Assembly: GCA_045863335.1 (NCBI GenBank) | Contig: BTVY01000003.1 | Span: forward strand, 1-64,000 | Length of the DNA stretch: 64,000 bases | Source of the DNA: Candidatus Hydrogenedentota bacterium | GTDB taxonomy: Bacteria > Hydrogenedentota > Hydrogenedentia > Hydrogenedentales > SLHB01 | Direction of reading: 5' to 3' | Shown here: positions 41,334 to 42,996 of the stretch, in pieces | Layout: each line of letters opens with the position of its first letter | Position numbering within the stretch: the first letter of the stretch is position 1 | Made by a program: the position numbers and the translations under genes | The notes under the pieces: model-generated | What the model was told of the DNA's origin: nothing | What the model saw: the letters and a program-made list of their open reading frames with translations, nothing else | The model's database searches: none

Positions 41334-41362
41334 TTGACTGCAAGGACGCTCCGGCGTATACT
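41334..41362 (+). promoter_or_regulatory. Sigma70 promoter for the riboswitch leader
   Basis: TTGACT (41334-39), 17 nt, TATACT (41357-62). Confidence 0.8.
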
Positions 41363-41369
41363 CAGCCCA

Positions 41370-41530
41370 TCAGTTGAACCGATGCGCGTGGGCCAAGGGA
41401 AGCACGGTGCAAATCCGTCGCAGACGCGCTGCTGTAACCGGCGACGAAAGCCGCAAACCGCCACCATTCGGGGGGATGGGAAGGCGCGGCGAATAGAACG
41501 ACCCGGAAGCCAGAAGACCTGCCCACACGT
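41370..41530 (+). ncRNA. Cobalamin riboswitch 1
   Basis: AAGGGAAgcacGGTGcAAATCCG...GCTGTAA...GCCAC...GGGAAGGC...AGCCAGAAGACCTGCC. Confidence 0.9.
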
Positions 41531-41677
41531 GATGAATGTGTGCGATGACTTCGCGAAACGGTCGTGGCATGATGCGGATCTCTTCAGTTAAGGGAGGGAT
41601 CCCACCCACCCAGGCCTGCATTTCCACCCGTTTCCGAAGACGTTGCTTGCGTGAACTCCGTCCATGGATTTTTGTCT

Positions 41678-41783
41678 ATGGACGGTATGGACATCATGGA
41701 CGATATGGACGGGGAGCCCTGTAAGGACTGCGCTCGAGGTGTCTTTGGTCCATCGCGTCCATACAGTCCACAGCGTCCATAAC
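41678..41783. repeat. Inverted arrays of a 9-mer: (ATGGACnnn)4 and (GTCCAynnn)4
   Basis: 41678-41713 and 41748-41783, read directly. Confidence 0.9.
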
Positions 41784-41804
41784 TCCGCGCGATCGCTCGC
41801 GCGA

Positions 41805-41980
41805 AAGGAGGTGACCCGGCACAAATCGTTTTTGTCCGTTGTGCAAGGGAAGTACGGTGTGAAGCCGTCGCAGTCCCGCTGCTGTAACCGGGGACGAACG
41901 CCGCAACGATAGCCACTGTCCAAGAGGATGGGAAGGCGCGGCGCGAGAGGGATCCGGGAGCCAGAAGACCTGCCATCGGG
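41805..41980 (+). ncRNA. Cobalamin riboswitch 2
   Basis: AGGT...AAGGGAAgtacGGTGtgAAgCCG...GCTGTAA...GCCACTG...GGGAAGGC...AGCCAGAAGACCTGCC. Confidence 0.92.
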
Positions 41981-42027
41981 CGATTGTTCTTGCGGCAACT
42001 TCGAGGAAAAGTTGCAGCGGGAAACGC

Positions 42028-42110
42028 GAGTTTCGCCCTTTCCTGCCTACTTTTCCGCGAGAACGTGAAAGTAAATCATTCGCGCGTAAGGTCGCGCAGG
42101 AAGGAAACTC
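42028..42110 (+). promoter_or_regulatory. Putative anti-SD/SD helix (riboswitch expression platform)
   Basis: gagtttc(gcc)ctttcctgc (42028-46) is complementary to gcaggaaggaaactc (42096-110), just before ATG 42112. Confidence 0.6.
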
Positions 42111-42111
42111 C

Positions 42112-42996
42112 ATGAGAAAGTCCACTCAAACGGTACGCGCCGAATCGCGTGTTCCTCACCATTCAGGGGGTAACGAGAGCGCCGCCTTCACGCTTATCGA
42201 ACTTCTTGTCGTCATCGCCATTATCGGCATTCTCGCCGCGTTGCTCTTGCCCGCGTTGAGCCGGGCCCGCATGAAGGCCCGTTCCATGCAGTGTGTGAAC
42301 AATCTTCGCCAATTGTATCTCGCCAACACCATGTACGCGAACGAGAACAACGGCCGCTATTGTCCGGCGGCGCCGGATATCAACGAAGGATTCGGGGGGA
42401 CGATTCGCTGGCACGGCGTTCGCGAGACCGCCAGCCCGGATTCCGACTTCGACCCGAAGAAAGGGCCGCTGGCGGAGTATCTGCCGGATGGACGCGTGAA
42501 GGAATGTCCCGTGTTCACGGAGTTCCGGAAGCAGGGCGAAGTGCCGAATGCTTTTGAGTCGGGCACCGGCGGCTACGGGTACAACGCCTCGTACATCGGC
42601 GGCACATACTATGAAAACGATTATCTCACGGCGCCCAAAAAGACCACGCCGGACGTGCGCGTCTTCGACCCGGCCAACACGATCATGTTTGCGGACGCGG
42701 CCATGCCGCAGGATGGGTACATCGTCGAGTATGGGTTTCTGGAACCACCGTATTTCGTTACCAACGACGCGCCCGCCGGAAACCCCGCGTGGGGCTTCGC
42801 CTCGCCCAGCATCCATTTCCGGCACGAGTTTCGCGCGAATGTGGTCTGGTGCGATGGGCACGTGACCAGCGAACGTTTTGGTTGGGCGCCGGACTCGCCG
42901 AACATCTTCGGTGGCGAGAATCAGCGCTGGGGTGTGGGCTGGTTCGGCCCCAAAGACAATTCGCTCTTTGATTGCCGGTTTACCGGACAGCTTTAG
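42112..42996 (+). CDS. Prepilin-type N-terminal cleavage/methylation protein with H-X9-DG C-terminus (DUF1559-like pseudopilin)
   Basis: [29 protein letters not shown]...[28 protein letters not shown]. Confidence 0.92.

Follow-up and report, generated by a model that had tools for sequence, protein, structure and literature searches.

The closest described counterparts of the system reported here are the B12 scavenging loci of Bacteroides, which join a BtuB-BtuG core to the accessory proteins BtuH and BtuJ, are led by a cobalamin riboswitch and, as these reports describe them, supply high-affinity capture proteins when B12 is scarce (PMC8941943, PMC10404256, PMC13398666). We analysed a 64-kb stretch of contig BTVY01000003.1 from a Candidatus Hydrogenedentota bacterium (the window), in which two cobalamin riboswitches in tandem precede a single gene for a pilin-like protein. 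The gene proved to be one member of a subfamily that accompanies cobalamin riboswitches throughout related genomes. The operons of these relatives share with the Bacteroides loci the leading riboswitch, the logic of induction at B12 scarcity, a BtuH-type domain protein, a DUF4465/BtuJ-type protein and a beta-propeller. Unlike the Bacteroides loci, they contain no TonB-dependent transporter, and a pseudopilin is their constant element; their binders carry C-terminal membrane anchors instead of lipoprotein signals, their propeller is six-bladed with no BtuG chain among the structural matches listed, and the window keeps the pilin only.

Other parts of the locus have described relatives as well. 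Tandem ("pseudo-cooperative") riboswitches for one ligand, adenosylcobalamin included, are reported to sharpen the dose response (PMC9481103, Table 1). The window likewise holds two full aptamers for one ligand in a single leader; unlike the described tandems, it has no intrinsic terminators that we could find, control apparently acts at the ribosome-binding site, and the target is a pilin. The protein itself shares the prepilin motif and a pilin fold (EpsG, Z 4.6) with the pseudopilins GspG-K of type II secretion systems (T2SS) and with the DUF1559/H-X9-DG proteins expanded in the Planctomycetes-Verrucomicrobia-Chlamydiae (PVC) group, and the H-X9-DG motif and a conserved Cys pair are common to it and 34 of 44 paralogues. 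Unlike GspG, it is about twice the size, scores far below the GspG cut-off and has invariant motifs confined to its subfamily. An analogy from general knowledge may be drawn with competence pili that carry ligand-binding minor pilins, such as ComP of Neisseria: the likeness would lie in a specialised pilin that takes hold of a large ligand, in its passage to the periplasm by retraction through a secretin and in an inner-membrane importer, and ComP (5HZ7, Z 4.5) is among the structural matches of the pilin model. Here, in contrast, the ligand would be a vitamin and not DNA, and the sequence relation is limited to the pilin N-terminus.

The tandem riboswitch, BtuH and BtuJ are already known. A literature search that left most subscription journals outside gave no publication connecting cobalamin riboswitches or BtuH with DUF1559, prepilins or pilins, and among the papers listed none joined either of the two to these phyla. 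What is apparently new is that the constant, riboswitch-controlled element of a B12 locus is a pilin-like protein, and this in phyla that largely lack TonB-dependent receptors.

A pilin-like subfamily is a constant member of a cobalamin riboswitch regulon

To determine how regularly the pilin-like gene is led by a riboswitch, we compared 41 genomes of the same order, including the source genome (G000; 99.4% complete, 6.75 Mb). The cobalamin riboswitch family RF00174 gave 73 matches in 39 of the 41 genomes, and an orthologue of the window protein (E <= 1e-40) was present in 38. Comparison of the coordinate lists by hand placed 33 of the 38 orthologues 0.1-5.8 kb downstream of an RF00174 match on the same contig and strand; 15 of them are directly adjacent (<500 nt), and 18 lie at 1.6-5.8 kb with genes between. 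For the other five (G012, G017, G026, G029, G038) the riboswitch and the pilin are on separate contigs, and the riboswitch contig then carries one of two partner genes described below, "small" (G012, G017, G026, G029) or "big" (G038 and the second riboswitch contig of G029). Since the pilin or the gene adjoining it is cut by a contig end in G012, G017, G029 and G038, these cases fit one operon split by the assembly, while in G026 "big" and the pilin stand together on contig C525, apart from the riboswitch contig.

The same linkage was observed in public records, where the best 80 of 541 relatives were considered. Fourteen of the 80 loci were scanned with Rfam, and an nhmmer profile was built from 12 aptamers; because 10 of these belong to the searched set, the profile is circular for L156, L159 and L164-L171, for which the Rfam result counts. 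Of the 80 loci, 59 have an aptamer-like match ahead of the module and on its strand, equal to 59 of the 62 that are evaluable; 18 of the 21 loci without a match end <400 nt before the first gene of the module. Nine of the 80 are of a Planctomycetota type (Pirellulales, Phycisphaerae, Planctomycetaceae; 43-51% identity). RF00174 is found 2-2.6 kb upstream in eight of these nine, and in the ninth the sequence breaks off 274 nt ahead of the first gene of the operon.

Counting from the riboswitches gave a corresponding picture. A hand tally with tandem pairs counted once yielded 67 leaders in the 41 genomes, 52 of which precede the pilin, "big" or "small". The other 15 lead BtuFCD-like ATP-binding cassette (ABC) operons, cob genes, MetE (one confirmed with Pfam), genes resembling ribonucleotide reductase (RNR), a GspG-like gene, a Flp/Tad operon and a few unknowns or contig ends, some of these labels being taken from open reading frames (ORFs) and not from a family search.

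Taken together, these results identify the subfamily as a constant member of a cobalamin riboswitch regulon in Hydrogenedentota and some Planctomycetota, and its membership of a B12-acquisition regulon is well supported. An earlier reading of the window made from sequence only had asked whether orthologues would be consistently B12-riboswitch-led or adjacent to btuFCD. The counts above answer the first part in the affirmative, whereas the partners found are BtuH-domain and DUF4465/BtuJ homologues instead of btuFCD. The contrary outcome, orthologues lacking any association with riboswitches or B12 genes, was looked for and is not what the genomes contain.

Two further observations concern the distribution of the subfamily. 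In G002 the same tandem leader is followed by a different, longer DUF1559-type gene (L050, G002:C11:46302-53114, minus strand), whose alignment with the window protein is confined to the N-terminus and the H-X9-DG end; no orthologue at E <= 1e-40 was found in this genome, and the gene may have been replaced under one leader. Orthologues 62-74% identical also occur in records titled Bathyarchaeia, Nitrospiraceae, Nitrospirales, FCB group and Rhodothermaeota (L096, L097, L098, L102, L109, L112 and others). Most of these records hold the same riboswitch module, and the contigs are probably mis-binned or mislabelled Hydrogenedentota.

Operon partners in relatives include homologues of B12-binding proteins

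In relatives, a gene that we call "big" lies between the riboswitch and the pilin. It encodes a protein of about 700 residues (18 of 18 mutually similar) with a signal peptide, a conserved N-terminal domain, a TSP3 repeat and immunoglobulin-like parts, and it was detected in 27 of the 41 genomes. A profile of 10 "big" proteins matched BtuH2 (7BIZ_A, E 1.7e-13, chain positions 294-338 and 399-490) and the H-domain of BtuG1 (8BLW_B, E 1.6e-15), both alignments falling inside the B12-binding domain. By this profile evidence, "big" carries a BtuH-type B12-binding domain. For BtuH2, this domain is reported to confer picomolar affinity for B12 (PMC8941943), and BtuG1 is reported to have a domain homologous to that of BtuH2 (PMC10404256).

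The second partner, "small" (about 345 residues, 8 of 8 mutually similar), was modelled as a six-bladed beta-propeller followed by a C-terminal helix and a basic tail. Its structural matches are generic six-bladed propellers (Pizza6, Z 22.1), with no BtuG chain among the matches listed; three proteins gave no Pfam family, and a profile gave no credible sequence match in the PDB. An assignment of "small" as BtuG was rejected: the fold class is the same, but evidence of homology was not found.

Planctomycetota-type operons have a different composition, running from the riboswitch through a DUF4465 protein and a protein resembling the N-terminus of "big" to the pilin. The DUF4465 protein scores over the Pfam cut-off (PF14717, 167.6 and 178.2 bits against a cut-off of 25, E 4.7e-49; 9HMU, E 1.9e-28) and bears a PEP-CTERM motif. 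DUF4465 (BtuJ) domains are described as sharing a B12-binding function, in a report whose main text mentions neither pilins nor Planctomycetes (PMC13398666). The other protein (B) aligns with the N-terminal part of "big" (hhalign 97.4%, 86 columns), and its profile gave no direct match to BtuH chains in the PDB.

Two arrangements tie these partners to the pilin. First, the pilin directly follows "big" in 45 of 71 Hydrogenedentota-type loci, and the partners carry C-terminal tails consisting of an anchor and basic residues. Second, 19 of the 80 public loci have "big" and the pilin in a single frame uninterrupted by a stop (L095, L098, L099, L104, L106, L110, L112, L121-L123, L125, L127-L129, L134, L139-L141, L151). 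The junction of these fusions is constant: the hydrophobic helix of "big" is followed by a short basic linker ending in Gly or Ala and then by the FTLIELL helix of the pilin. Judged from sequence, the junction would fold as a hairpin in the membrane that leaves both globular parts on its outer face, and the basic linker, which is equivalent to the prepilin leader, is predicted to lie in the cytoplasm, where prepilin peptidase acts. With this topology the fusion would be harmless, and its occurrence is evidence for insertion of "big" and the pilin side by side and for joint action of the two. A complex prediction with residues 22-300 of "big" and 40-285 of the pilin, both from G036, scored 0.00, an outcome that gives no answer and speaks neither for nor against binding.

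A ComF-like gene (double zinc ribbon plus phosphoribosyltransferase, by Pfam) was observed directly after the pilin at L162:2835-3590, and from ORF reading also in L164, L165, L167, L168 and L170. The ComF family is otherwise tied to DNA-uptake machinery.

The window protein is a distinct pilin-like orthologue

The N-terminus of the window protein has the features of a prepilin (N_methyl, 27.9 bits, cut-off 21.2; TIGR02532, 25.5 bits, cut-off 16.3), with an FTLIE motif that places Glu at +5 after the cleavage site predicted by alignment. Glu at this position is needed for type IV filament assembly. The DUF1559 model (PF07596, named SBP_bac_10) reached 22.4 bits against a cut-off of 23.3 and covered residues 51-78 only; many close homologues carry a precomputed PF07596 match. 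Because its own score falls short, we term the protein DUF1559-like and not a scored member. Near the C-terminus lies H238-x9-D248-G249, invariant in the subfamily alignment; no NCBIfam H-X9-DG model came up among the matches of the window protein, and the label comes from the source names of homologues. The major T2SS pseudopilin model GspG (TIGR01710) gave 33.5 bits against a cut-off of 88.85, at the N-terminus only.

An AlphaFold2 model (mean predicted local distance difference test score 85.8) has a helix at residues 28-78 followed by the strands of a sheet. When this model was aligned exhaustively against known structures, pilins and pseudopilins made up 21 of the top 22 rows. Foldseek against the PDB gave no match at E <= 0.001, its top row being a pilin at E 0.23. 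As modelled, the protein has the long N-terminal helix packed on an antiparallel sheet that characterises the pilin fold.

We next considered how the protein differs from its many paralogues. The best 120 of 7938 homologues with E <= 0.001 are 60-95% identical, and a hidden Markov model (HMM) of the subfamily, built from 37 homologues, gave the window gene 523 bits and each of the other 51 hits in the 6.75-Mb genome at most 102 bits. The window gene is a distinct single-copy orthologue among about 50 pilin-like paralogues, and it alone of the 52 in the source genome is tied to a riboswitch. A common scaffold joins the subfamily to 44 paralogues compared: the Cys pair, N64, Q67, H238 and D248-G249, of which H238, D248 and G249 recur in 34, 40 and 41 of the 44. 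Other residues are invariant in the subfamily, Planctomycetota members included, and nearly absent from the 44 paralogues, namely R99-W-H-G-x-R104, E149 and G151-x-GGYGYN-x-x-Y-x-G163, together with M192-FAD, E206-Y-x-F, H235, R237, W246, G276, F278 and N283. The sequence-only reading had proposed a corrinoid- or cobalt-binding subunit displayed on a T2SS- or pilus-like filament, which would give the family a function; the subfamily has invariant residues of its own that these paralogues lack, and an extension to the whole DUF1559 family would be speculative.

The tandem leader is conserved within the genus

The sequence-only reading had described a promoter, two B12 riboswitches, a repeat hairpin and an anti-Shine-Dalgarno (anti-SD) helix ahead of one DUF1559/H-X9-DG prepilin-type gene closed off by a convergent gene. 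Each of these was recovered at or near the positions it gave (Table 1), and the leader measures about 740 nt from promoter to ATG, as it had estimated. An Rfam scan of the entire window returned two matches only, the two aptamers; both are full-length and well above the RF00174 gathering score of 31.5 (model length 189), and both are placed in the leader, after the promoter-like site and ahead of the ATG, on the same strand as the pilin gene. The promoter is the sole such site in 41200-43100, where shuffled sequence contains a mean of 0.5 sites; it ends 10 nt before aptamer 1, and its core is identical in all five same-genus leaders.

Table 1. Features of the riboswitch-led pilin unit, in window coordinates
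Feature	Position	Strand	Basis
Sigma-70-like promoter TTGACT, 17-nt spacer, TATACT	41334..41362	+	10/12 matches
Cobalamin riboswitch aptamer 1	41373..41540	+	RF00174, 90.9 bits, E 3.4e-21, model 1-189
Structured linker: long stem, repeat hairpin, SD-like GAAAGGAGGTGA	41541..41822	+	fold z = -4.67
Repeat hairpin, 34-nt arms, 9-nt units	arms 41677-41710 and 41748-41781	+	inverted repeat
Conserved SD-like GAAAGGAGGTGA, putative remnant of a duplicated unit	41803-41814	+	sequence repeat
Cobalamin riboswitch aptamer 2	41823..41991	+	RF00174, 95.6 bits, E 1.5e-22, model 1-189
Expression platform: hairpin 41987-42023, then anti-SD helix	41987..42111	+	minimum-free-energy fold
Prepilin-type H-X9-DG (DUF1559-like) pseudopilin, B12-linked subfamily, 294 aa	42112..42996	+	domain matches, homologues, AlphaFold2 model
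Convergent YkuD/ElsL-like gene	43022-43807	-	domain matches

The cores of the two aptamers are 81-86% identical at an offset of about 450 nt, which marks the tandem as a duplication. A short repeat is also shared by the SD-like GAAAGGAGG ahead of aptamer 2 and the real ribosome-binding region; with the core identity, this indicates that the whole unit of riboswitch plus platform was duplicated. That the GAAAGGAGGTGA preceding aptamer 2 might open a leader peptide was considered and rejected, as no suitably spaced start codon was seen.

Downstream of aptamer 2, nucleotides ~42039-42047 are predicted to pair with ~42096-42104, that is with AGGAAGGA just before the ATG at 42112 (fold of 41985-42130, z = -2.98), and both strands of this predicted anti-SD helix are kept in five genomes of the genus. 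No site resembling an intrinsic terminator was found on the + strand of the leader region. The switches most likely act on translation initiation, Rho perhaps taking part. Conservation in the five genomes extends over the entire tandem leader and takes in the promoter core, both aptamers, the hairpin next downstream of aptamer 2 and the strand that pairs with the SD.

The repeat hairpin behaves differently. Its unit is ATGGAC plus three variable bases; long intergenic hairpins of this kind occur at 30 loci of the source genome, and the same-genus genomes G002 and G004 have leaders without it. In a related strain, an RNA-library contig (X4) likewise skips 41666-41773 and lacks the hairpin. Because it is dispersed, and missing from these leaders and the RNA contig, we regard the hairpin as incidental, and it was dropped as a candidate regulatory element. 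One copy of the repeat lies about 900 nt upstream of an RNR-like gene on contig C39; relatives have a riboswitch ahead of that gene.

Three metatranscriptome or transcriptome libraries contain contigs of close relatives over the leader, which are assembled contigs and may include DNA carry-over. In X17 a single 1961-nt contig of ~93% identity runs from 41384 to 43339, over both aptamers and the gene and 340 nt past it. Contigs of two studies start at 41384 (X17) and 41380 (X19), ~20 nt past the -10 box. These starts hint, though weakly, at transcription of the unit from the predicted promoter, as assembled contigs give no level, strand or true ends, and gaps in their cover carry no meaning. 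The small word shares of runs X17-X21 were discarded as evidence of habitat.

The source genome uses B12 and keeps the pilin without its partners

Neither "big" nor "small" was found in the source genome with HMMs on six-frame ORFs (E <= 0.01) or with single-protein searches, and DUF4465 and the DUF5074/BtuG-type family were likewise not found there. Twelve orthologue-bearing genomes have a riboswitch-led pilin and no detectable "big", namely G000, G003, G004 and G005 of the source genus and G008, G009, G013, G015, G021, G023, G024 and G032, which suggests that the pilin works without its partners. The source genome has lost its operon partners, and the lone state is derived in this genus and not typical. 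The "lone" gene of the sequence-only reading is therefore an accurate description of this locus, but not of the relatives, which have partners. Its remark that btuB, btuF, cob and metE are absent here also held among the neighbours annotated at 38-64 kb of the window.

The source genome contains eight ORFs with a B12-binding domain. CobS was not found, and the organism appears unable to finish B12 synthesis. It has a BtuFCD-like operon with no riboswitch within 8 kb. Filament machinery is abundant, with 19 T2SSE-family ATPases over the cut-off, about half of them of PilT-like length, and seven secretins over the cut-off. A search for thiamine pyrophosphate (TPP) riboswitches found none among the 150 of 279 candidates that were scored.

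No Plug domain of TonB-dependent receptors was found in 28 of the 41 genomes, several of them 99-100% complete, and none of the 24 Plug matches in the order is near a riboswitch. The single TonB-dependent receptor of the source genome belongs to the TOL_0244 family (666.7 bits against 645) and lies beside a hybrid histidine kinase; it stays well below the cut-offs of the BtuB models (TIGR01779, 86.1 bits, cut-off 599.7; NF007926, 59.8, cut-off 836). These organisms use B12 and sense it by riboswitch, mostly without the only known outer-membrane route.

Other filament genes follow B12 riboswitches

Riboswitch-led filament genes are not confined to the DUF1559-like subfamily. In the single-contig genome G035 a complete Flp/Tad operon stands behind another full-length RF00174 match of 76.9 bits (L057, G035:C1:2207937-2212305, minus strand), its genes running in the order Flp-like pilin, A24 prepilin peptidase, TadE, RcpC/CpaB and secretin. 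In G009 a cobalamin riboswitch of 119.3 bits precedes a GspG-like pseudopilin (N_methyl plus T2SSG) that is cut by the contig end (L005, G009:C18:18732-20810); the riboswitch-led DUF1559-type orthologue of this genome is on C23.

A filament route for corrinoid and its alternatives

We propose that the window gene encodes a pseudopilin that is induced by B12 starvation and belongs to a corrinoid-acquisition system. Some role of the protein in acquiring corrinoid is likely. The mechanism set out here, taken as a whole, is one that we favour on balance, while its most specific elements, direct binding of corrinoid and import by a filament, are put forward tentatively.

In this model both riboswitches would be OFF switches. 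With corrinoid plentiful, either bound aptamer would keep translation off, and possibly transcription too, through Rho; two switches in series would give a steeper and tighter shut-off. With corrinoid scarce, the pseudopilin would be made, cut by prepilin peptidase before FTLIE and taken into one of the many T2SS- or type IV pilus (T4P)-like machines. There the ligand-specific subunit would take up corrinoid, either directly via the aromatic, His and Arg residues of the subfamily or from the BtuH/BtuJ-like binders, and retraction of the filament through a secretin would carry it over the outer membrane to the BtuFCD-like importer. Such a route would stand in for BtuB in organisms that mostly have no TonB-dependent receptors. 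A filament subunit would explain why the pilin persists without its partners, why TonB receptors are few and filament machines many, and why other pilus genes are riboswitch-led.

Corrinoid binding by the pilin, its assembly into a filament and B12-dependent repression are predictions of this model, and several points weigh against it. The source genome has one TonB-dependent receptor and 13 of the 41 relatives hold some, which leaves a TonB route for B12 open to these organisms. A further B12 riboswitch was not found in the source genome among the 150 of 478 first-look candidates that were scored, and one could be missed. At three loci (L112, L142, L149) with 680-1430 nt of upstream sequence, neither nhmmer nor Rfam (E <= 0.01) found a cobalamin riboswitch, and since the relatives are kin, the linkage counts are not independent events. 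Concerning the protein, the 25-residue prepilin leader (42112-42190) ends in Ala-Ala and not Gly: residue -1 is Gly in most orthologues and Ala in several, of both phyla. Ala at this position is tolerated by some prepilin peptidases. The structural matches to pilins are also modest, the best being PilA4 (Z 5.4, rmsd 3.2, 121 residues).

Among the alternatives, the least improbable is that the protein serves as an adaptor for export or display, a T2SS-type subunit that secretes or presents B12 binders and does not itself touch corrinoid. The frequent position of the pilin directly after "big", the fusions, the anchor-plus-basic tails of the partners and the PEP-CTERM motif of the DUF4465 protein would all suit such a role. 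We nevertheless consider it unlikely, as the 12 genomes described above keep a riboswitch-led pilin without detectable "big", and the source genome, from which "small", DUF4465 and DUF5074 are missing as well, has no known cargo for an adaptor to carry.

The protein could instead be a periplasmic binder held in the membrane by its pilin helix, passing corrinoid to the BtuFCD-like importer with no filament involved. The topology of the fusions, which sets "big" and the pilin together on the outer face of the inner membrane, is compatible with this, as are the SBP_bac_10 name of the DUF1559 model and the presence of the importer in the source genome. However, the protein was modelled with the fold of a pilin and not that of a periplasmic binding protein, Glu at +5 is kept, and whole pilus machineries lie behind B12 riboswitches in relatives; such a binder would also leave the crossing of the outer membrane unexplained in genomes without TonB-dependent receptors. 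An anchored binder of this kind is accordingly quite unlikely in our view.

A third possibility is that B12 starvation induces a pilus for adhesion to, or predation on, B12-producing neighbours, and not a route of uptake. Type IV filaments commonly mediate adhesion, Flp/Tad is a typical adhesion pilus, and a riboswitch-led Flp/Tad operon is present in G035. The constant partners of the pilin are, in contrast, homologous to proteins that bind B12 itself, which argues for the handling of the molecule rather than of cells and makes this possibility highly improbable. Finally, the notion that the riboswitches are remnants of a deleted B12 operon and that their control of the pilin is fortuitous, to which the solitary gene of the source genome with no B12 gene beside it might have lent itself, can be dismissed, because the arrangement is kept across an order and in a second phylum and the whole leader, expression platform included, in five genomes of the genus.

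The corrinoid-acquisition model brings one member of the very large DUF1559/H-X9-DG family of unknown function within reach at the level of a ligand, through a defined regulator (B12), defined partners (the BtuH- and BtuJ-type binders) and a small set of residues specific to the subfamily. It also raises the question of how a 1.3-kDa vitamin crosses the outer membrane when 28 of 41 genomes show no TonB-dependent receptor; a route by filament and secretin, if true, would add a new mode of nutrient uptake. Characterisation of BtuH and BtuJ proteins has so far been in gut Bacteroides; the present loci extend both families to uncultured phyla of sludge and sediment and to a different membrane anchoring. 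As a speculation that we hold to be rather unlikely as it stands, Hydrogenedentota and some Planctomycetota might bring B12 through the outer membrane by a retractile type IV filament or pseudopilus with a corrinoid-specific, riboswitch-controlled DUF1559-type pilin, in place of a TonB-dependent transporter, and the large DUF1559 expansions in these phyla might be sets of ligand-specific "fishing" pilins that take up nutrients.

Neighbouring genes in the window

On its upstream side the riboswitch-led unit is bordered by a divergent cardiolipin-synthase-like gene. Farther along the window, 54499-59126 holds a row of murC-, ftsQ- and ftsZ-like genes that ends with a PilT-like T2SSE ATPase (58032-59126), 15 kb from the pilin.

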